64,000 bases of DNA from Candidatus Gottesmanbacteria bacterium (GTDB taxonomy: Bacteria; Patescibacteriota; Microgenomatia; UBA10105; UBA927). The stretch spans positions 1,023,907-1,087,906 of the forward strand of contig OY970230.1 of NCBI GenBank assembly GCA_963714095.1, given 5' to 3'. This document shows positions 3,896 through 49,980 of the stretch, in pieces (the stretch's first letter is position 1; every line of letters begins with the position of its first letter). A program made the translations under genes and the position numbers. The notes beneath the pieces are model-generated. The model searched no databases. It was not told where the DNA came from and was given only the letters and a program-made list of their open reading frames with translations.

Positions 3896-4144
3896 TCATT
3901 TTATCACACGATGAGTGGATTCGGGGGGTAGAACGATTTCGGGAAACAACAAAGCATCAGGTGCAGAGTGTATCCAACCAATCAAAAATCCTGTACAGTT
4001 TGCTGCATCAATGAGGATATTACCGCTAAGGTATATGATTTCATCAGGTGGCGGATTCCACATCGCGTTTATCAAGCCTTTTTGACGAATGGATTTTCCT
4101 GCTTTTTCGCCGATTCCGAAGCCCGAAAGAAATGATTCTTGCAT
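3896..4144 (-). CDS. Small hypothetical protein (82 aa)
   Basis: This ORF fills the gap between folD and gyrA on the same strand. No recognisable motif was found. Confidence 0.25.
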   Translation of the reverse strand: MQESFLSGFGIGEKAGKSIRQKGLINAMWNPPPDEIIYLSGNILIDAANCTGFLIGWIHSAPDALLFPEIVLPPESTHRVIK

Positions 4145-4156
4145 ACAATAACTGAT

Positions 4157-6673
4157 TTACTTCGTTAGGCAGGTTGCGGCGGCTATCGTATCACTTTTGT
4201 CAGCAAATCTCATTAAAATAACTCCTGAGGTGGCGCGGCCGAGGCGCGGTACGGAATTAATAGGGAGTTTTACGACTTGGCCTTTCATGGAGGTGAGAAT
4301 GACGCTGTCGGTTTCAGCCGGAACGATTTGTGAGACAACCACTTTTCCGGTGCGGTCCTTGACCTCGGCAACTTTGACGCCCTGCCCTCCACGTTTCTGT
4401 TTGGGGAAATCGCGGATGGCGGTTTTTTTACCGATCCCCTTTTCCATAATAGTGAGAAAATCCGCTTTTTTGGTTTCGTCATTGATCACGTCGACGCTCA
4501 CCACAAAGTCCGTGCCTTTCAGGAGTATGCCGCGGACGCCCATGGTATCGCGGGCCGTCGGACGGACCTCGGTTTCGTTAAACCGGATGGATTTGCCTTC
4601 GTGAGAGACGAGGAGTATATCGTCCGAGCCGCTGGTAATCCGCGCCCAGGTCAGTTCATCGTCTTTTTCCAGTTTAATGGCAACCAGGCCGCTGCGGCGG
4701 ATATTTTCGTATTCCGTTAATTTGGATTTTTTCACCGTCCCGTGTTTGGTTGCCATCAGAATAAATTTGACACCTAATTCCTTCTGTTCGTCGCGCTTGA
4801 GACTGTAGGTCAAAACCGACGTCACGCGTTCGCCGGATTCAATATTGATTAAATTTACGACTGCCTGCCCCTTTGCCTGGCGGCTTGTTTCCGGAATATC
4901 CCACACGCGCACCTGGTATACCCGTCCGCGGTCGGTGAAGAAAAGCATATTGTCGTGGGTTTGTGCCGTGAGGATTTTATCAATAGTATCTTCTTCTTTG
5001 GTCGTCATACCGATGACACCTTTGCCGCCTCGTTCCTGCATCTTAAATGTGCCTCTGGGGAGCCGTTTGATATACCCGGACTCGCTCATGGTGATAATGA
5101 CATCTTCGTTGGCAATAAGCTGTTCTTCCGAAAATTCCCCGACTTTGCTTTTGAAAACTCTCGTTTTCCGTTGGTCTCCGTATTTTTCCTTCAGTTTATT
5201 GAGTTCGTCTTTCACGACTTTAAGAATTTTGGTCGGGTGAGCCAGCAAATCCTCCAGATAGTCTATGGTTTCGCGGATCATCGCCAATTCGTCTTCGATT
5301 TTCTGGCGTTCGAGTGCCGCGAGGCGGCGCAGCTGCATGTCCAGAATCGCCGTTGTCTGGATATCGGAAAGTTTAAACTTGGTCATTAATTTCACTTTTG
5401 CTTCATCGGCGTCTTTACTCTTTTTGATAATTGCGATCACTTCATCTATATGGTCGACGGCAATTTTTAAGCCCTCCAAAATATGTTCGCGTGCTTTTGC
5501 TTCCTTGAGTTCAAAAACGCTACGGCGCCGGACAATATCATGGCGGTGTTTGATATATTCTTCCAATATAAGTTTAAGTGAACACGTCTGAGGCGTATTA
5601 TCAACAAGGGCGACCATGTTCACAGGAAATGTGGTCTGGAGTGCCGTATATTTATACAAATTATTCAATACCTGCTTGGGTCTGGCATCCCGTTTGAGTT
5701 CGATGTACACGCGGATGCCGCGGCGGTCGGATTCATCACGAAGGTCGCTAATACCTTCAAGCTTTTTTTCGTGGACAAGCTCAGCTATGCGCGCTACCAA
5801 AACGGCTTTATTGACCTGATACGGAAGTTCGGTGATTGCAATTGCCGATTTTCCCTGTCCAATGTCTTCAATTTCCGCTTTGCCTCTCATGACGATTTTG
5901 CCGCGCCCCGTTGTGTAGGCCGCCTTAATTTCATTGATGTCGTAAATAGCGCCCCCGGTCGGGAAATCCGGTCCCTGAATGTGTTCCATAAGCTGGTCGG
6001 TCGTGATGTCGAAGGTAAAGTGGGTATCGGATTTCACCTCACTTACACCTTCCGTTTCCTTCGTCTTCGTCAGTTTGACGGTGTCGATCATCGCGCCGAT
6101 TGCGTCCGCCACCTCCGTGAGATTATGCGGCGGGATTTTGGTCGCCATACCGACGGCGATTCCCTCACTGCCCATAAGGAGGAGGTTCGGGAGTTTCGCC
6201 GGAAGATACACCGGCTCGTTGATGGTACCGTCAAAATTCGGAATAAATTCAACTGTTTCCTTCTCGATATCCAGAAGCATTTCATCGGAAATTGCGGCGA
6301 GGCGACATTCTGTGTAGCGCATAGCGGCGGGCGGATCTCCGTCAATGGATCCGTAGTTTCCCTGCCCGTCAACAAGGCGGTACCGCATGGAAAATTCCTG
6401 CGCGAGGCGTACCAATGCTTCGTAGACAGGCGCGTCTCCGTGCGGATGATATTTTCCCAGGACTTCTCCGACGACCGATGCACTTTTTTTGTATTTACTC
6501 GTGTGGTGTAAGCCGGTCTGATGCATGGCGAATAAGATTCGCCGATGTACGGGCTTCATGCCGTCACGTACGTCCGGAAGGGCGCGCGCCACAATGACGC
6601 TCATTGCATAGTCGAGGTACGACTTTTGCATTTCATGCGTGATTTCGGACTGGTTGACTTTGCCGATATTCAT
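4157..6673 (-). CDS. gyrA: DNA gyrase subunit A
   Basis: The N-terminus reads [30 protein letters not shown], the GyrA QRDR region. Length is 838 aa with the C-terminal beta-pinwheel repeats. Confidence 0.95.
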
Positions 6674-8753: not shown

Positions 8754-10703
<1,950 letters not shown>

Positions 10704-10780
10704 CTAAATCATTCTACAATACTTCACACGGGTTGTCTAGGGAAATCGGTACACCCGCCGATATAATGGATCTTCGGATT

Positions 10781-11185
10781 TTATTCAATAAATCCTGTAG
10801 CTTTTAATACTTTTTGAGCATGTAAGGATAAGTCAGTTGATAAAATTTCATACTTTTCAAACCATCGGGCCTGATCATATTTTCGTGCATCTACCGAAAG
10901 CCCGCTATAATCGCCACTGCAAATAAAAACATATCGTGTAATTGCGGCATCTATTTCTTCATCGGTTACTTGTGTTGTTTCTACTATAGATATGTATTGA
11001 AGGTTTAATTTTTCAAACGCATCTTTCATTAACGTGTCCGAAGGCGTTACTCCGGGTAAAATATCTCCTCCCATTAAATCCCATTTTCCCGGAGCATATG
11101 TTCTTTTTTGATTACGTCTTAAAAGTAAGACTTTCTGCTTGTTCTCATCTACGAAGACACCACTTATGGCTTCTCTTTTTCTCAT
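10781..11185 (-). CDS. NUDIX hydrolase
   Basis: Size is about 134 aa. The GKWDLMGGDILPG segment resembles a Nudix-box context. The region is AT-rich. Confidence 0.5.
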   Translation of the reverse strand: MRKREAISGVFVDENKQKVLLLRRNQKRTYAPGKWDLMGGDILPGVTPSDTLMKDAFEKLNLQYISIVETTQVTDEEIDAAITRYVFICSGDYSGLSVDARKYDQARWFEKYEILSTDLSLHAQKVLKATGFIE

Positions 11186-11820
11186 ATTTGAAGGATCGCG
11201 TTATCAACGACTAAGCGCTGGTTTACGTTGACCGCGAGTTGGGTTTGGGCGGTGAGAAGATTACGGATAAGATTGGTTAGTTGAGGTGTAGGGTGTTTCA
11301 AAAGTTCTTCCCGCGCCGCACCCAACAGTGATGTAACAAATTTTTTGGCTTCGTCGCGCGTGGCAACAAACGGTTCTAAAGTTGAAAGACGTTTCCCCGG
11401 AGACTCTTCTAATACTTTCAAAAGAATTGATGTGTCGGATTTCTGGGCAGCATCCGTAAGGCGCACGACACTCATGCGGGATAGGATAGTCGGCAGAAGC
11501 GCTTCGGGGACGCTCGTCGTCCCTATAATATATGTATGCGGCGGTGGCTCCTCGAGCGTTTTTAAGAGAGCGTTTTGTGCTTCTGGAGTCAGACGCTCAA
11601 TATCGGTAAGCAAACCAACTTTAGCCGGAGAATTTCTCTGCATAAGAACGAGTTCGCGTTGAAAGTCGCGGATCATTTCGATACCGACAGTTCCTTCTTC
11701 CGGCAGACGAATAGTATCCCACGCAGAAATTTTCCACGAGCTCGTTCGGGATACTAATTCCTTCTGTATAGACTCTTTATTGCCCCCGACAATAAGAAAC
11801 GCATGCATAATCCCTTGCAT
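11182..11820 (-). CDS. holB: DNA polymerase III delta' subunit
   Basis: The translation contains ALLKTLEEPPPHTYIIGTT, the AAA+ delta' signature, and SRM sensor residues (ILSRMSVV). Confidence 0.8.
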   Translation of the reverse strand: MQGIMHAFLIVGGNKESIQKELVSRTSSWKISAWDTIRLPEEGTVGIEMIRDFQRELVLMQRNSPAKVGLLTDIERLTPEAQNALLKTLEEPPPHTYIIGTTSVPEALLPTILSRMSVVRLTDAAQKSDTSILLKVLEESPGKRLSTLEPFVATRDEAKKFVTSLLGAAREELLKHPTPQLTNLIRNLLTAQTQLAVNVNQRLVVDNAILQI

Positions 11821-11850
11821 TATAATACAAAAACATCAATAATAAATTGT

Positions 11851-13572
11851 ATGGCCAGCTCTGCCCAACCAATATTAAATGCACTCGTTGCCGACGGTCG
11901 TCTCTCTCAGACTCAGGCGGATGCGATCCTGACGGAGACGTTGTCTACGGGTGCATCCGTTGAAGATGTTCTTATTAAAAAGCGGTTGGTATCCGATATA
12001 GACCTTGCAAAGGCAAAAGCTAAGTCAATTAATGTTCCGTTTGTTACACTGTCAGGACGCGCTATTACTCCGGCCATTGTCAATTTTATTTCCGAACCCG
12101 TTTCCCGTAAATATACACTCATCCCGTTTGAGTTTAATAGTGTAGCAAACGAACTTTCTGTCGCCATGCTGGACCCTCTGGATTTTCAGGTTTTGGAATT
12201 TATTGAAAAGAAATCCGGGAAACGCGTCCGCCCGTTTATGGCACTCAAAGACGATATTCTTTCTGCTATTGACGAAACGTATTCGCAGAATCTCGGTGAA
12301 GATGTCACGGCGGCCTTGAAGGAAACCGTGGAGCCTGAAATCAAAACATATGAGGCGGGCCGCCTGGGTGAAGTTATCCGTGAAGCGCCTATCGCACAAA
12401 TCGTTTCTGCGACCCTTGAGCAGGCTATACATCTGCGTGCATCCGATGTACATATTGAGCCTCAGTCCGGCGACACACGCGTGAGGTACCGGGTAGACGG
12501 AATTTTGCAGGAGCGGCTGGTTCTTCCCAAACGCCTGCACGATGCCGTCGTGTCCCGTATCAAAATCCTTGCGGATATGAAAATTGATGAGAAGCGTGTT
12601 CCCCAGGACGGTCGCTTTAATTTTAAAATGGGAGAGGAAGAAGTGGACCTTCGTGTATCAACACTCCCGACCGTACACGGAGAGAAAATCGTCATGCGGC
12701 TCCTGAAGAAAACCGGCGGTATTCCGACACTGCCCGAGTTGGGCCTGCGGGGTCTGGCACTCAAAAACCTGGAATCTCAAATAGCCCGTCCGCACGGCAT
12801 TATTCTTGTTACCGGACCTACCGGATCCGGTAAAACGACGACTCTTTACGCAGTACTTTCTAAGCTCAATAACAGCAGGGTAAACATTATGACGCTTGAA
12901 GACCCGGTTGAGTACGAAATTCCCGGCGTGAATCAGGTTCAGATTAATCCGGGGGCAGGCCTCACATTTGCGACAGGTTTGAGATCATTTTTGCGGCAGG
13001 ACCCTAATATCATTCTTGTCGGGGAAATCCGCGACCGTGAAACAACGGATTTGGCTATACAGGCAGCGCTAACCGGACATACCGTATTTTCCACCCTGCA
13101 CACAAATAACGCCTCGGGTGCCATTCCGCGTCTTTTAGATTTAGGGGCAGAACCGTTCCTTATTGTCTCGAGCCTCAATGCTGTCGTGGGCCAGCGCATC
13201 GCACGTAAAATTTGCCCGACGTGTAAAGAAGAATATGATCCTGACGAAGAAGTGAAAAAAGACATCAACAACGTGCTCGGCGCGTTGGTGCCGAAAGACA
13301 GCCCGCTGAAGTTGTATCGGGGAAAAACAACGGTTAACGGGGTTGAATGTGCAGCATGCGGCGGAGCCGGGTATTTAGGCAGGATCGGTATATTTGAAGT
13401 GTTCCCTGTTTCCACAGCCGTTGCCAGATTGATTGCCATACGGGCATCGATGGAAGACATTCAACAGACTGCGGTAAAAGAAGGTATGATTACCATGAAA
13501 CAGGACGGATATATGAAAGCGTTGGAAGGCGTGACGACGATTGAAGAAATCCTTCGTGTCGCGCAGGATTAG
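11851..13572 (+). CDS. pilB: Type IV pilus assembly ATPase PilB (GspE family)
   Basis: The N-terminal GSPII_E_N domain reads LSQTQADAILTE. Walker A is GPTGSGKTTTLYA, and there is a C-terminal tetracysteine motif (CPTCK...CAACGG). The start was chosen at MASSAQP; the longer ORF from 11803 overlaps holB. Confidence 0.9.
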   Translation: MASSAQPILNALVADGRLSQTQADAILTETLSTGASVEDVLIKKRLVSDIDLAKAKAKSINVPFVTLSGRAITPAIVNFISEPVSRKYTLIPFEFNSVANELSVAMLDPLDFQVLEFIEKKSGKRVRPFMALKDDILSAIDETYSQNLGEDVTAALKETVEPEIKTYEAGRLGEVIREAPIAQIVSATLEQAIHLRASDVHIEPQSGDTRVRYRVDGILQERLVLPKRLHDAVVSRIKILADMKIDEKRVPQDGRFNFKMGEEEVDLRVSTLPTVHGEKIVMRLLKKTGGIPTLPELGLRGLALKNLESQIARPHGIILVTGPTGSGKTTTLYAVLSKLNNSRVNIMTLEDPVEYEIPGVNQVQINPGAGLTFATGLRSFLRQDPNIILVGEIRDRETTDLAIQAALTGHTVFSTLHTNNASGAIPRLLDLGAEPFLIVSSLNAVVGQRIARKICPTCKEEYDPDEEVKKDINNVLGALVPKDSPLKLYRGKTTVNGVECAACGGAGYLGRIGIFEVFPVSTAVARLIAIRASMEDIQQTAVKEGMITMKQDGYMKALEGVTTIEEILRVAQD

Positions 13573-45887: not shown

Positions 45888-46361
45888 TCATCTGACGACC
45901 GTATCCATCTCCAGATGCCCAAAGTCCACGGGTTTGGGGGCGTGTTTCACCCGCACCCGCTTCCGTTGCTTCTTTTCCATCCATTTTGAGGCGGGATTGT
46001 GGTACACATGCCTCCCTTTGAAGAAAAACAAATTGTTCCGTTTGATCACCTTGCCAATGGTCGATGTTGCAATCAAAGGAAGATCGAGCCTCCGACATTC
46101 TGCGTCCACAAACGGCTTGAGCTTCTCTTTACTCCTGCGGGGATATTGTTCCCGTTGAGAACGAATGAATGTAACAATGCGGGGATCCACCCGCATGGTT
46201 CGGAGGGTCTTTGGTGTGGTGGACGTTGGGGTGAGAACGACCAAATGATCGTGTCCACGATCTAACCGTTTTCTCCACACCCAGATAGTCTTACGGGACA
46301 CACCAAAGGCTTCCATCGTTGCGTGTTCTCCGAACCGCTCGTAAAAAGAGAGGATTTTCAT
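45888..46361 (-). mobile_element. Truncated DDE transposase (HTH + start of rve/integrase core only) – IS remnant
   Basis: An HTH is present at GVSRKTIWVWRKRL. The ORF stops right after FGHLEMDTVVR, which is where the DDE catalytic core would begin. No full catalytic domain follows. Confidence 0.55.
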
Positions 46362-46396
46362 CCGCTCCTTGGCTACCTCCTCAGTATCAAATTTAT

Positions 46397-46927
46397 TTAT
46401 TGTTTAGTACGATACATTACAGATCCGGAAGACAAGATACGGAAAACGTAGATGTGATTGACGCGGTCCTGTCGGATGATTTTCCAGCCGGGGAAGATAA
46501 AACTGTTGGAGACGATAATCGTGCCGGGTTTCAATTCCTTCTTTAACATATCCGCTAGACGTTTCATTTTCCAGGGCAAAAGATACACAAAAACCGCGTC
46601 AGCATCGTGGATGTCTGCCTGCCAGAAGTTTTTCCAGTGCGTTTCTGTCCCGCGCACTTTTGAAAAAAGAACCAGCAGCGGATTGATTTCAAACCCCACT
46701 GCATTTGCGCCCTTTTTGGCGGCTAAAAGAAGGAGTTTGCCGTTACCCGACCCTAAGTCGTACACTTTATCGCCTTTGGTGATATGTGCCAGCCGGATCA
46801 TCGCGTCGGCGGAAGTATTTTTCGTCGGCACGAAGGGCGCGCCGGTGAAAAACGCCAGGCACATATAGAAAAAGAAAATGACAAACCCAAGCTGCAGAAG
46901 GAGAAATAACAACGAAAGGGCGATCAT
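46397..46927 (-). CDS. Membrane-anchored class I SAM-dependent methyltransferase
   Basis: An N-terminal TM is followed by motif I, VYDLGSGNGKLLLLAAKKGANAVGFEINP. The start was trimmed to MIALSLL to remove an overlap with the upstream gene. Confidence 0.6.
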   Translation of the reverse strand: MIALSLLFLLLQLGFVIFFFYMCLAFFTGAPFVPTKNTSADAMIRLAHITKGDKVYDLGSGNGKLLLLAAKKGANAVGFEINPLLVLFSKVRGTETHWKNFWQADIHDADAVFVYLLPWKMKRLADMLKKELKPGTIIVSNSFIFPGWKIIRQDRVNHIYVFRILSSGSVMYRTKQ

Positions 46928-46934
46928 GCAGTCA

Positions 46935-47897
46935 TTATAACAGGAATGTCTGAACAGCCCGAAGCCTTGCCTGCCAGTTAAGGTTGTTGGAAAGTACGAA
47001 TGTAAAGAGTTTTTTATCGCGTGAAGCGCGGTAGAGAACATATTGAGGAACCAGCAGCAGAAGGATCAGAAGTGCCAGAAGTATGTTGGCATTATCCGCG
47101 GCGGCACGCGTGGTTGTCCCCAACACCTGAACCTTTGTCGGTATTGATCCTGAGACCACCATTGGGCCTGATCCGGTATCCGATGATGCGCCAAGTACAG
47201 ATCCTGATACGATAAACGCGCTGTCCGAGAAGCTGCTTATACTGTCATTACTGGGCCCTACATTCCCCGATACCATTGCCCGTGCGGTATACACTCCGCC
47301 CGGTGTCATTTTGGACAGCACAAATCCGGTGGTTACATTGTATCCGTGCCCGGGGTCTATAGTGCCCAGCGGAAATGTTTGCCCGCCGACATCTTTGCCG
47401 TCTTTTAACAAATGAAGGTACAGGCTTGCGTTATAGACGTGTCCCGTACCCGGATTTTTAATATTGACAAAAAATGTTACCGTGTCTCCGGGATTTACAA
47501 AAGCCCCGACGTTGTTGCTGTTGGTGACAGAAAGTTGCCCGCCGGAGTCCTGGGCACCTGCGTTTGTACTCACCATCGATGCCTGCGCGATCTCCGGGTC
47601 TGCGGGCGGATCACTGCTAGCCGCGGCAAGTGAGGCAGCGTCCCCGACGTTGCCGTTCCAGGTACCGAATATATTAATAAATCCGAAAAATGCCGTCGTG
47701 CGGTACAGGACGGTATTGACGAGATTGGTAAGCGATACGGCGCTTACCGCATTTCCGGTTGTAATCGTACCGCCCTGAAAACCAGCTCCGTTATTCTGGT
47801 TGAACGGGTATCGGCAAGTCACATTGTGAAAGGCGATATTATTAGTTTTGAAACCAAAAGCAGTGCTTCCGTGACTCACCGGGTCTATGAAATTCAA
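46935..47897 (-). CDS. Cell-surface protein with CARDB-like beta domain and C-terminal TM/basic anchor
   Basis: The body is Gly/Asn/Thr/Ser-rich. The C-terminus reads LLALLILLLLVPQYVLYRASRDKK. No N-terminal signal peptide is evident, so the 5' boundary is uncertain. Confidence 0.45.
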   Translation of the reverse strand: MNFIDPVSHGSTAFGFKTNNIAFHNVTCRYPFNQNNGAGFQGGTITTGNAVSAVSLTNLVNTVLYRTTAFFGFINIFGTWNGNVGDAASLAAASSDPPADPEIAQASMVSTNAGAQDSGGQLSVTNSNNVGAFVNPGDTVTFFVNIKNPGTGHVYNASLYLHLLKDGKDVGGQTFPLGTIDPGHGYNVTTGFVLSKMTPGGVYTARAMVSGNVGPSNDSISSFSDSAFIVSGSVLGASSDTGSGPMVVSGSIPTKVQVLGTTTRAAADNANILLALLILLLLVPQYVLYRASRDKKLFTFVLSNNLNWQARLRAVQTFLL

Positions 47898-48620
47898 AAT
47901 AATAACAACACGTTAACTTTTATTACAAAAGGTGATGCTAATAACATCCCGGATATTGATCCGGTCTCTGTAGAGCAGATCAAAGGTAAAGTAATTTTTA
48001 TTATTCCCTATATCGGATATCTTTATCTTTGGATTAAACAACCTATCGGATTTTTACTTCTCATAATTACTCCGGCGCTGTATATCATCGTGAGTGAAAT
48101 TATCGTTGCAAAGAAACTTATCGAACGGGAGGCGATAAAAAAATACAATAAACAACATCCGGTTACACCGCACCTCATTATCATAGGTTTGTTGTCAATC
48201 GCCTTGAGTTTTCTCAGTGCCAAAAAAACTATTTCATATTTTTCATCCGGTCTTGTCTTGTCGGGCAACATTTTCTCGACAGGCAAGTGGTCTACCGATG
48301 ATCCTCCTGCTGCTGATGATCCGACCGCCATACTTACAATTTCCTCCGACGGGCATACGGCAACATTTACGGTCACAAATACGTCGTCATTTGACCAAAT
48401 TTCCTACACGTTGACATACGATACCGATACCAAAACGCAGGGTCTCATGGGAACCATAGCAATAAACGGCAACAATATCATAACCAAAGACGGACTGACG
48501 CTCGGAACGTGTTCAACAGGTGGTACGTGTACGTATGACACCGGTGTTAATAACGTTACGCTTAGTGTAGCCCTCACCAATAGTAAAGGTGAGACAAAAA
48601 ATTTAACTGCACATCCATGA
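47826..48620 (+). CDS. SipW-like (ER-type, S26B) signal peptidase C-terminal half fused to TM + extracellular beta-rich domain; catalytic Ser region absent
   Basis: The translation contains GDIISF...SVTHRVYEI...ITKGDANNIPDIDPVSVEQIKGKV, which covers the His and Asp boxes of SipW-type peptidases, followed by two TM segments and a Thr/Gly/Cys-rich domain. No SGSMEP box lies upstream in any frame. Confidence 0.45.
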   Translation: MKGDIISFETKSSASVTHRVYEIQNNNNTLTFITKGDANNIPDIDPVSVEQIKGKVIFIIPYIGYLYLWIKQPIGFLLLIITPALYIIVSEIIVAKKLIEREAIKKYNKQHPVTPHLIIIGLLSIALSFLSAKKTISYFSSGLVLSGNIFSTGKWSTDDPPAADDPTAILTISSDGHTATFTVTNTSSFDQISYTLTYDTDTKTQGLMGTIAINGNNIITKDGLTLGTCSTGGTCTYDTGVNNVTLSVALTNSKGETKNLTAHP

Positions 48621-49225
48621 AAAGAACACACAAAATGATACTGATGCTCTTCATAATATTCCCGTTCATGTCGGCAGGGTACGTCTATGCATCCGACTAC
48701 GACCGATTGGTTACCTGTTCTACAAAAACCTGTACGATTTCTTCAAACGATCCTTTATTTACGGAATTCAATTGGTCGCAGGGAGCAAGCGTTACAAAAA
48801 CAATCCGCGTAAAAAATATGCAAGCGACATCACTCCTTATTTATATCAGCGCCGACAAAAATAATTCCTCTTCAAATTTAGGAGATGTCATCGGAATGAA
48901 AATCATTGAGCAAAAAAATAGCATTGTGCGGCTGGATACAACGCTAACGCATTTTTTCAACACAGGATCAGTTGAACTAGGGGGTATAAATGGAAACGGG
49001 CAGGATGATTATAAATTTATCGCCGCGTTAGAAAATAATGCCGGTAATACATACCAAAATAAAAAAGTTGTATTTTCTCTTGCACTTAACTTTAGCGGTA
49101 TTCCCGTCAATACACCGATGCCTACGCCGACACCGACGCCCAAACCACCTCCACCCCTTCGACCGAACTTTAACTTTTGGTGGCTTCAGTATCTTCTGGA
49201 AAGACTTCGGGGACTCCGAAGATAA
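48617..49225 (+). CDS. Secreted TasA/camelysin-like (M73-like) protein candidate
   Basis: The signal peptide is MKRTHKMILMLFIIFPFMSAGYVYAS. The start overlaps the sipW-like stop (ATGA). The C-terminal KVVFSLALNFSG resembles the TasA-family terminal beta-strand. The C-terminus is PT-rich. The region is AT-rich. Confidence 0.35.
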   Translation: MKRTHKMILMLFIIFPFMSAGYVYASDYDRLVTCSTKTCTISSNDPLFTEFNWSQGASVTKTIRVKNMQATSLLIYISADKNNSSSNLGDVIGMKIIEQKNSIVRLDTTLTHFFNTGSVELGGINGNGQDDYKFIAALENNAGNTYQNKKVVFSLALNFSGIPVNTPMPTPTPTPKPPPPLRPNFNFWWLQYLLERLRGLRR

Positions 49226-49244
49226 TTTTAAAATTTGCTGTGGG

Positions 49245-49317
49245 TGCGCGCGCATGGATTCGGACCAAGGACCTTTGCAATGTGAATGCAACGCTCTACC
49301 AGCTGAGCTACGCGCGC
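49245..49317 (-). tRNA. tRNA-Val (anticodon CAC)
   Basis: The cloverleaf reads acceptor GCGCGCG/CGCGCGC, D arm GCTC-AGCTGGTA-GAGC, anticodon arm TTGCA-TTCACAT-TGCAA, and T arm CTTGG-TCCGAAT-CCATG with one mismatch. The spurious ORF 49177.. translates the typical LYQLSYA peptide. Confidence 0.75.
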
Positions 49318-49371
49318 CAAAAAGACGCACTACGATTATATCCTAAGAAACAGGGAAAACAAAACGAAAGA

Positions 49372-49980
49372 TTATCCCGCCGATGTTGCCAGCGAGCGCT
49401 CGTTGGAGAGACCGAAGGTCGTGCCGTGTTTTTTGAACATGCCCCAGTACCCCATTTTCTTTTTCCTCGACTGGTGCATGGTAAGCCAACTGCGGCTGTC
49501 GTCGATTTGTTCGCGAAGCATTTTAAGAACGGCGAGCAATTTCTCATAGAAATTGACATGATACACGCCGGGGTCAACGGGAGTTTCTATAACAGCCTTT
49601 TTTATTTCACTGTTTAACGCCTGCATGGATTTGGACAGGGCTTTCAGTTCCATGCGCAGCGCTTCGATTTGCTGCTTCGTCTGCGGGTCTTCATGAAAAA
49701 CAACTTTTTCCGCCGGTCTCACCTCGGGGCGATGCATCATCGGTCGCGGTTGGCGTTCCACCGGAAAACTGATGCTTTCGTTCGGACGCATTTCCCCTTG
49801 TTTTATCGGCGTGCCAAAAAGTGAGGCGAGGGCATCCGATGCAACCTTGCCCGCGACATCGTGCGCGACTGTTCTCCCCACGCCTCCGCTCAAGTCCCGG
49901 ATGGCCTCCAGAATGCTGTCATTCGTGTAGGCTGCGGGCCTCTTTTGGGGTTTGGACTGTGTGAACGCTGAATTGTTCAT
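49372..49980 (-). CDS. Hypothetical coiled-coil protein
   Basis: The ORF is 202 aa with a heptad-rich central region. No motif was recognised. Confidence 0.45.
   Translation of the reverse strand: MNNSAFTQSKPQKRPAAYTNDSILEAIRDLSGGVGRTVAHDVAGKVASDALASLFGTPIKQGEMRPNESISFPVERQPRPMMHRPEVRPAEKVVFHEDPQTKQQIEALRMELKALSKSMQALNSEIKKAVIETPVDPGVYHVNFYEKLLAVLKMLREQIDDSRSWLTMHQSRKKKMGYWGMFKKHGTTFGLSNERSLATSAG

Follow-up and report, generated by a model that had tools for sequence, protein, structure and literature searches.

Head-to-head remnants of a SipW-type signal peptidase gene and a surface-protein gene at a probable deletion scar beside tRNA-Val in a Candidatus Gottesmanbacteria genome

In a 64,000-nucleotide stretch of the genome of a Candidatus Gottesmanbacteria bacterium (contig OY970230.1, positions 1,023,907 to 1,087,906; this whole stretch is referred to here as the window), an open reading frame (ORF) on the plus strand that resembles a SipW-type signal peptidase (SPase) appears to collide with an ORF for a surface protein on the minus strand. 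Our analysis describes the locus as two genes that have each lost their 5' part and that abut head to head at about position 47772. The features that bear on this finding are the following, where P0003 is a complete relative of the peptidase and TM stands for transmembrane.

46935..47774, minus strand: remnant of a surface-protein gene, its C-terminal ~280 codons, with a CARDB-like domain, a C-terminal TM segment and a conserved tail.
47754..47783, no strand: head-to-head junction of the two 5'-truncated remnants, with the breakpoint estimated at ~47769-47775 and no filler DNA.
47775..47912, minus strand: spurious 5' extension of the surface-protein ORF (start at TTG 47897 or GTG 47822), antisense of SPase coding sequence.
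47772..48620, plus strand: remnant of a fused SipW-type SPase gene, equivalent to residues ~51-318 of P0003.
47868-47894, plus strand: His box SVTHRVYEI (VTHR at 47871-47882), its His an invariant column in the relatives' alignments.
47922-47954, plus strand: Asp box ITKGDANNIPD, with GDAN and D invariant columns in the relatives' alignments.
48042..48110, plus strand: TM2, the C-terminal helix typical of SipW/archaeal-type SPases (hydropathy > 1.6).
48111..48290, plus strand: internal signal-peptide-like unit, made of a basic loop KKLIEREAIKKYNKQHP, an h-region VTPHLIIIGLLSIALSFLSA, then TISYFSSGLVLSGNIFSTGKW.
48291..48617, plus strand: C-terminal Thr/Gly-rich extracytoplasmic domain, predicted from the AlphaFold2 (AF2) model of P0003 to be an immunoglobulin (Ig)-like beta-sandwich.

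The plus-strand frame is open from 47634, directly after a TGA stop at 47631-47633. The called ORF within it (47826-48620, 264 amino acids [aa]) begins at GTG 47826, which is the first and only usable start, no ATG, GTG or TTG being present between 47634 and 47826; its product is database protein P0001. Against NCBIfam, the frame 47634-48620 matched TIGR02228 (sigpep_I_arch) at 92.3 bits (E 2.7e-26), above the cutoff of 51.85, and covered profile positions 45-156 of 158 only. The match to NF046067 (SipW), at 89.7 bits and over profile positions 44-179 of 189, lies under the 190-bit equivalog cutoff, as do the scores of intact relatives (109-124 bits). NCBIfam was needed for this assignment, as a Pfam search of the SPase ORF gave no match at E <= 0.1. 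Our own profile, built from 12 full-length relatives, matched the frame at E 6.6e-91. A protein search spanning 5.8 billion proteins returned the identical 264-aa P0001, encoded on a 1,088,247-bp contig, and 78 relatives; the window SPase is 55% identical to P0002 and 46% identical to P0003. The TIGR02228 score and the invariant columns bear out the original prediction, made from the DNA letters, of an endoplasmic reticulum (ER)-type SPase with its His and Asp boxes.

The half of the peptidase that carries the catalytic serine is absent. In the closest complete relatives (P0003 and P0004, 318 aa; P0006, 396 aa; P0009-P0012), an N-terminal TM helix at residues ~5-32 is followed by RVMSGSMEPAIKTGS, with the Ser box SGSMEP at about residue 45. 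A [ST]GSMxP box is recognisable by regular expression in most complete relatives, and its G, S, M, E and P are nearly invariant (at least 90%) in a 30-sequence alignment. The window protein has no hydrophobic segment ahead of its His box. Neither a tblastn search of the whole 64 kb with eight full-length relatives, which found no N-terminal SPase piece, nor a regular-expression search of all six frames of the 64 kb, which found no Ser box, recovered the missing part; P0001 is likewise without the box, and an in-frame Ser box is visible in none of four assemblies of this locus. Homology to SPases extends 17-18 codons 5' of GTG 47826, to ~47772, with ALKTSSVILVERVSASHIV aligning with AIKTSAIILVKQTPVNQIV of P0005, and 5' of ~47772 the plus frame shows neither a TM segment nor SPase similarity. 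The frame had been described as open back to 47634, which is correct, but also as encoding nothing SPase-like upstream, which is not.

A Ser box hidden by a frameshift or a recoded stop was considered and rejected: six-frame translation of 47.3-48.0 kb, tblastn and the regular-expression search were all empty, the sequence 5' of TGA 47631-47633 is non-SPase, and other genes in the window use TGA as a normal stop (for example that for ThrRS, 609 aa). A Ser-to-Cys variant box, ISGCNRT (47751-47771), was also rejected, being the in-register antisense of the surface-protein motif GGTITTGNA with no TM segment upstream; its S-G match to MSGSMEP is best read as chance. No obvious Shine-Dalgarno sequence precedes GTG 47826, and promoter-like matches are no commoner than in shuffled sequence. 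The SPase is truncated, its catalytic-Ser half and TM anchor gone and not masked by an indel. Both the loss of SGSMEP and the N-terminal TM helix and the truncation of sipW by a rearrangement had been proposed beforehand, the latter as one of two options, and both stand; the six frames of the 64 kb contain no Ser box that correction of an indel could bring into frame.

On the minus strand, the called ORF (46935-47897, TTG start, 320 aa) lies in a frame open to 47912, and the database protein derived from it, P0080 (295 aa), starts at GTG 47822. This protein belongs to an unnamed surface-protein family (P0081, P0090-P0101) of 700-780 aa, found in Levybacteria and other Patescibacteria, whose full-length members have a signal peptide, an N-terminal repeat region, a CARDB-like domain, a C-terminal TM segment and a tail. 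A profile of 13 full-length family members matched the minus frame at E 8.4e-122 over positions 449-729 of 729 only, so that profile positions 1-448 are missing, and the signal peptide with them. Identity to P0081 and to the 772-aa ORF of contig L005 is 56-60%, and the Pfam CARDB match is weak (E 0.0025). Family homology starts at GGTITTGNAVSAVS, from 47774 downward, and the first ~46 codons of the ORF have no counterpart in the family. The surface gene is 5'-truncated and its signal peptide is lost, in agreement with the earlier remark that this ORF lacks one. The ortholog in L005 is a 772-aa ORF (4048-6366) with a typical signal peptide. The public gene call for L005 splits this ORF into the 564-aa P0081 and a spurious 179-aa antisense gene, a mis-split that mimics the same head-to-head "collision" as in the window.

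The SPase and surface-protein homologies abut at ~47772. The SPase profile aligns with low posterior from 47754 and confidently from ~47772, and the surface profile with low posterior from 47783 downward and confidently from ~47771. As called, the two ORFs overlap by 72 bp (47826-47897). This apparent overlap exists because each remnant's frame stays open into the antisense of the other, and frames open across the scar lead gene callers to choose arbitrary GTG or TTG starts. A real coding overlap is absent, and both called 5' ends are spurious open-frame extensions. The suggestion that one of the two ORFs had been mis-called was therefore right about mis-calling but not about its extent, for it affects both 5' ends. 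At the junction there are no repeats, inverted repeats, insertion sequence (IS) ends or att-like sequence. P0001 is encoded on three further contigs, L001-L003 (ENA ERZ25039480, 552 kb; Logan ERR11594402; Logan ERR11571142), which match the window at 99.8-99.96% identity and share its junction sequence. The only differences among the assemblies within 46395-49400 are two synonymous single-nucleotide polymorphisms (SNPs). The junction, found in four assemblies from at least two runs, is real, and an assembly product is unlikely.

Three neighbouring features help to place the junction.

45891..46394, minus strand: 504-bp N-terminal (helix-turn-helix) fragment of an IS481-like transposase (NF033577, E 3.6e-10; 39.8 bits, cutoff 224).
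48617..49225, plus strand: gene for a 202-aa secreted protein, in the same low-GC module as the SPase remnant, its ATG overlapping the SPase stop (ATGA).
49243..49317, minus strand: tRNA-Val(CAC), found with ARAGORN, its 3' end facing the SPase module; it is conserved and forms the right-hand border of the variable region.

The IS481-like fragment had been proposed as a possible cause of the truncation. It is an indel polymorphism, present in the window and absent from L001-L003, and lies 1.4 kb from the junction, beyond an intact and syntenic methyltransferase gene. Because the junction is present without the fragment, and the two are 1.4 kb apart with an intact gene between them, this IS copy did not cause the truncation. 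Neither terminal inverted repeats nor a target duplication accompany the fragment, and the window has just this one copy of it. As listed, the methyltransferase ORF (46397-47041, 214 aa) overlaps the stop of the surface-protein remnant; L001 and relatives have a gene of 176 aa, with its start at 46927, and the longer ORF is probably over-extended.

On the other side of the junction, the overlapping arrangement of an SPase gene and a 202-aa-type gene is also found beside P0002 and P0004. The 202-aa protein has no significant family by Pfam, NCBIfam or PDB sequence search and no clear relationship to TasA-like proteins; it has a Pro/Thr-rich C-terminal stretch and a basic tail. The module formed by the SPase remnant and this gene (47775-49225) has the lowest GC content of any 1451-bp stretch in the window (0.411, compared to 0.478 +/- 0.025). 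Island DNA often sits directly 3' of a tRNA gene, and the lowest GC content of the module together with its place directly 3' of tRNA-Val fits island DNA. No att-like duplication of the tRNA-Val 3' end was found. A listed 146-aa ORF (49177-49617, plus strand) spans tRNA-Val and the antisense of a DUF5660 gene and is almost certainly no gene.

Comparison with L005 places the scar between conserved flanks. The L005 contig begins with the end of the DUF5660 gene, after which come tRNA-Val(CAC) and a 3.9-kb stretch of other genes. The surface gene, intact at 772 aa, follows, and then the gene for the 176-aa methyltransferase, further genes and ThrRS-IF3-L35-L20-PheST. Its 3.9-kb region contains unrelated genes, including those for an S8 peptidase and small secreted proteins. 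Read in reverse, the window has Tig, DUF5660 and tRNA-Val on one side and the 3' part of the surface gene, the methyltransferase gene and ThrRS on the other, and between these borders lie only the SPase remnant and the 202-aa gene. Order and relative orientation on both flanks of the scar are the same in the window and L005. Three relatives share, in one orientation, the surface gene, a 160-176 aa gene, further genes, ThrRS, IF3, (L35,) L20 and PheST. The 160-176 aa gene encodes a DOT1-like methyltransferase in L005 and the P0091 contig, and the left-hand synteny is also present in L007 and the P0091 contig. From these comparisons, the region 3' of tRNA-Val is a tRNA-associated variable region. 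The missing part of the surface protein was sought with the N-terminal 490 aa of the L005 protein as query, giving 154 matches; none among the 120 listed came from the 1,088,247-bp or the 552,456-bp contig. As a positive control, a C-terminal surface query returned P0080 of this genome as its top match.

We infer that the scar is a local deletion in the tRNA-Val-associated variable region that joined the two 3' remnants and left both dead, and we consider this reading probable. The ancestral order, in the orientation of the window, would have been the surface gene on the minus strand, island genes, and then, all on the plus strand, a TasA/camelysin-like gene, the fused peptidase gene and the 202-aa gene, followed by tRNA-Val. 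A single illegitimate deletion without filler DNA would have brought the two 3' remnants together, head to head, at ~47772. It would have removed the first ~60% of the surface gene, including the signal peptide, everything in between, presumably including the TasA-like gene, and the first ~50 codons of the peptidase gene, which encode the TM anchor and the catalytic serine of SGSMEP.

Several observations weigh against this reading. Both remnants are perfectly open (about 281 codons each) and retain every family-invariant residue, and the two polymorphisms inside them are both synonymous. Open and undecayed remnants imply either that the event was recent or that the remnants are under some constraint. 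The closest relatives (55-60% identity) are without the SPase module at this position, and the absence of the 5' halves outside the 64 kb rests on called proteins only. Finally, an incoming fragment that was already truncated would leave the same scar.

This last point leads to an alternative that we regard as unlikely, in which a truncated sipW plus 202-aa fragment from a donor of lower GC content was joined beside tRNA-Val by illegitimate recombination and took the place of the native island and of the surface gene's 5' part. The GC content of the module, the lowest of the window (0.411), its position directly 3' of a tRNA gene, the unrelated genes that the closest relatives hold at the same position, and the origin of SPase relatives in genomes of lower GC content (0.33 in L004) are all consistent with such an import. 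The low GC content may, on the other hand, simply reflect a gene for a membrane or secreted protein. Horizontal replacement requires two illegitimate joins rather than one, and no integrase, att repeat or mobile-element end was found. The functional verdict would not change, as the remnants would be dead either way.

We infer from their sequences that both remnants are non-functional. Without its nucleophile or membrane anchor, and short of one or two core strands, the peptidase remnant would be unable to act as a serine peptidase, and its peptidase activity is expected to be absent. It has also lost its start codon and promoter region, and a start at GTG 47826 removes another beta-strand. The surface remnant would not be exported, because it has no signal peptide.

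There is a modest chance that the C-terminal part of the peptidase retains a residual, non-catalytic function. According to this alternative, itself improbable, the 264-aa ORF would still be expressed, either so that the C-terminal Ig-like domain is exported through the internal signal-peptide-like TM3, or as a non-catalytic SPase-like factor, similar to the inactive streptococcal SipA in pilus assembly or to the peptidase-independent role reported for Bacillus subtilis SipW. The ORF is intact, its invariant residues are kept and its only SNP is synonymous; the basic loop, the h-region and the motif together amount to a complete unit of the signal-peptide type, and the translational overlap with the downstream gene (ATGA) persists. 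In Foldseek, the family fold falls near inactive SipA (4n31) as well as SEC11, and a paper by Terra et al. (2012), cited in PMC4551309, calls SipW a bifunctional signal peptidase in its title. Against such a function, the native promoter, ribosome-binding site and start codon are deleted, the replacement GTG is without a Shine-Dalgarno sequence and drops a further beta-strand, and promoter-like matches are at chance level. Moreover, the window contains no cognate TasA-like gene and no intact SipW-like gene that could process the motif, and the SPase search returned no second match from this genome.

Two further accounts of the scar fare worse. An inversion or translocation would mean that both 5' halves survive elsewhere as a convergent pair, possibly as a reversible switch. 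In terms of geometry, two genes of the same orientation with an inversion between them would be expected to end up as just such a head-to-head pair of 3' remnants; the remnants are undecayed, and the genome beyond the 64-kb window was covered by called proteins only. We nevertheless consider it very unlikely: both flanks of the scar are collinear with L005, with nothing moved, the missing 490 aa were unmatched among this genome's proteins (120 of 154 matches listed), the junction has no inverted repeats, the 47 kb to the left and the 16 kb to the right contain no 5' piece of the SPase, and all four assemblies show a single orientation. Least probable of all is that the assembly is chimeric, or that two genes truly overlap and one ORF is simply mis-called. 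Contigs of metagenome-assembled genomes can be chimeric and the called ORFs do overlap, but the same junction recurs across assemblies and runs, and inside the overlap the family homology of both ORFs ends at ~47772.

Apart from its truncation, the peptidase belongs to a subfamily with a fused architecture. The original prediction of two TM helices followed by an extracellular domain is correct as to the segments present, but these are better described as TM2, a putative internal cognate-type signal peptide with a TasA-like motif, and an Ig-like domain. In P0002-P0012 and P0031, the catalytic domain is followed by TM2, a Lys-rich loop, a second hydrophobic segment (48162-48221 in the window), a shared motif, T-x-[AS]-[YF]-F-S-x-G-x-x-L-x-x-N-x-F-S-T-x-x-W, which P0001 also has, and a variable C-terminal domain. 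The pattern of a cognate signal (basic n-region, h-region, T-x-[AS]-[YF]-F-[ST] and an N-x-F-x-x-G strand) is present at 48111-48290, and TISYFSSGLVLSGNIFSTGKW resembles the N-terminal motif of SipW-cognate, TasA/camelysin-type proteins. For a hidden Markov model (HMM) of the internal SPase segments, run on 1137 ORF pieces, the only match beyond SPases was the N-terminus of the TasA-like protein of L004 (E 2.3e-8), the next-best ORF being at E 0.23. TIGR04088, the model for SipW-dependent-type signal peptides, gave 14.3 bits (E 0.033), under its cutoff of 19, on the segment of P0012 and no match on the window segment, and Pfam, including PF12389 (Peptidase_M73), gave no match on 48201-48620.

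The AF2 model of P0003 (mean predicted local distance difference test [pLDDT] 84.7) consists of the SPase domain, two helices, a disordered motif region and an Ig-like sandwich. The stretch equivalent to TM2 is a long helix (residues 139-175), and residues 223-317 are all-beta, with block pLDDT of 84-95. The motif region, residues 197-218, is predicted to be disordered (pLDDT < 50); as regards docking of the cleavage motif in the active site, the model thus gives no evidence for or against self-processing. The Ig-like domain showed weak Foldseek similarity to curli-associated CsgC (2xsk, E 0.009) and CsgH (E about 0.01-0.02 for the two), which may be generic Ig-fold similarity.

The neighbours of the fused peptidase genes point to the TasA family. 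In L004, the gene directly upstream encodes a TasA/camelysin-like protein of 189 aa (PF12389 E 0.0037, under cutoff), and that in L008 encodes a 204-aa protein 58% identical to it; both have a signal peptide followed by T-[TL]-A-Y-F-S-x-G-x-V-L-G-S-N...F-A-T-G. On the P0004 contig, a ~190-aa gene occupies the place directly upstream, a correspondence of position only. Among 48 SipW-like ORFs from GTDB-representative genomes, many have neighbours with a T-x-A-[YF]-F-[SN]-D motif, and two (L009 and L010) are fused, with an internal motif that resembles the neighbour's N-terminus. A further observation in fused sipW genes is co-variation between the internal motif and the start of the adjacent TasA/camelysin-like protein encoded upstream, for example TGAFFSNGLALSGNIFSTG vs TTAYFSNGQVLGSNTFATG (loci: L004 7370-9191; L008 2107-3869; L009 and L010 around 9900-12600). 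This co-variation suggests either a shared assembly interface or derivation of the fusion from a paralogue. The fusion had been called unusual, and it is indeed rare; conserved in P0002-P0012 and P0031, it is a genuine trait of the subfamily and not a product of this rearrangement.

One interpretation of this architecture, which we offer tentatively, is that the intact members (P0003, P0004, P0006, P0009, P0012, L009 and L010) are enzyme-substrate fusions that process themselves and prime, cap or anchor fibres. The extracytoplasmic SipW domain would cleave the cognate-type signal peptide of its own chain, in cis or between neighbours. Cleavage would free a small Ig-like (or other) domain that now starts with a TasA-type donor-strand motif, and this domain, released or tethered, would serve to prime, cap or anchor the TasA-like fibres of Patescibacteria. 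The signal peptide of TasA is 27 residues long (PMC4551309), and passages in PMC10269814 and PMC4551309 describe its cleavage by SipW with Phe at P2'. Aligned with TasA, the window protein would be predicted to be cut after TIS and before YFSS. The window copy would be a dead example, its substrate gene lost in the same deletion. In our literature search, no paper linking SipW with the candidate phyla radiation was found, and no description of a fusion of an SPase to its cognate signal was found in SipW and camelysin papers.

For annotation, P0001 (264 aa) and P0080 (295 aa) are remnants with arbitrary starts and should be flagged as pseudogenes, and this locus has no overlapping genes; open frames across a deletion scar can mimic antisense gene overlap. 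The lineage has lost a surface protein that is widespread in related Patescibacteria; judging by the window and the protein searches, it has lost the SipW/TasA-like module as well. The scar is ordinary genome decay. The sole novel element is the architecture of the subfamily, an enzyme plus a putative cognate signal, which is mildly novel and of which the window holds a dead copy: this rare SipW subfamily appears to carry in cis a copy of the signal peptide and N-terminal strand of its substrate. If the self-processing interpretation is true, these proteins could provide a compact model for SipW specificity and for the initiation of TasA-like fibres in ultra-small bacteria.

The closest known system is tapA-sipW-tasA of B. 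subtilis, in which SipW, of 190 aa, is a dedicated archaeal/ER-type signal peptidase for TasA and TapA. The window SPase is of the same type and shares the His box, the Asp boxes and the C-terminal TM helix, and the genes of its relatives adjoin a TasA/camelysin-like gene whose product has a signal peptide and then T-x-A-Y-F-S. It differs in that the window copy is without TM anchor, catalytic Ser and a TasA-like gene, while its subfamily adds a putative in-cis cognate-type signal peptide and an Ig-like domain; we know of no Bacillus SipW with such additions. The best structural match of the P0003 catalytic domain is to SEC11A/C (PDB 7p2p and 7p2q; Foldseek E 3.7e-5 and 1.6e-4; TM-score on target 0.60), which has a motif set of the Ser-His type. 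SEC11, however, is a subunit of a multi-protein complex without a fused substrate-like segment, and the window copy is without the Ser half. The third-best structural match (E 3e-4) is the SipA/LepA-type protein of Streptococcus pyogenes (PDB 4n31). SipA has an SPase fold without catalytic residues and is needed for pilus polymerisation; it is complete, folded and membrane-anchored, its catalytic residues lost by substitution, whereas the window copy lost its whole N-terminal segment and start codon by deletion. The locus as a whole resembles the ordinary deletion pseudogene pairs of reduced genomes, with two neighbours cut by one filler-free junction between syntenic flanks, and its only peculiarity is that both frames are open across the scar, mimicking overlapping genes.

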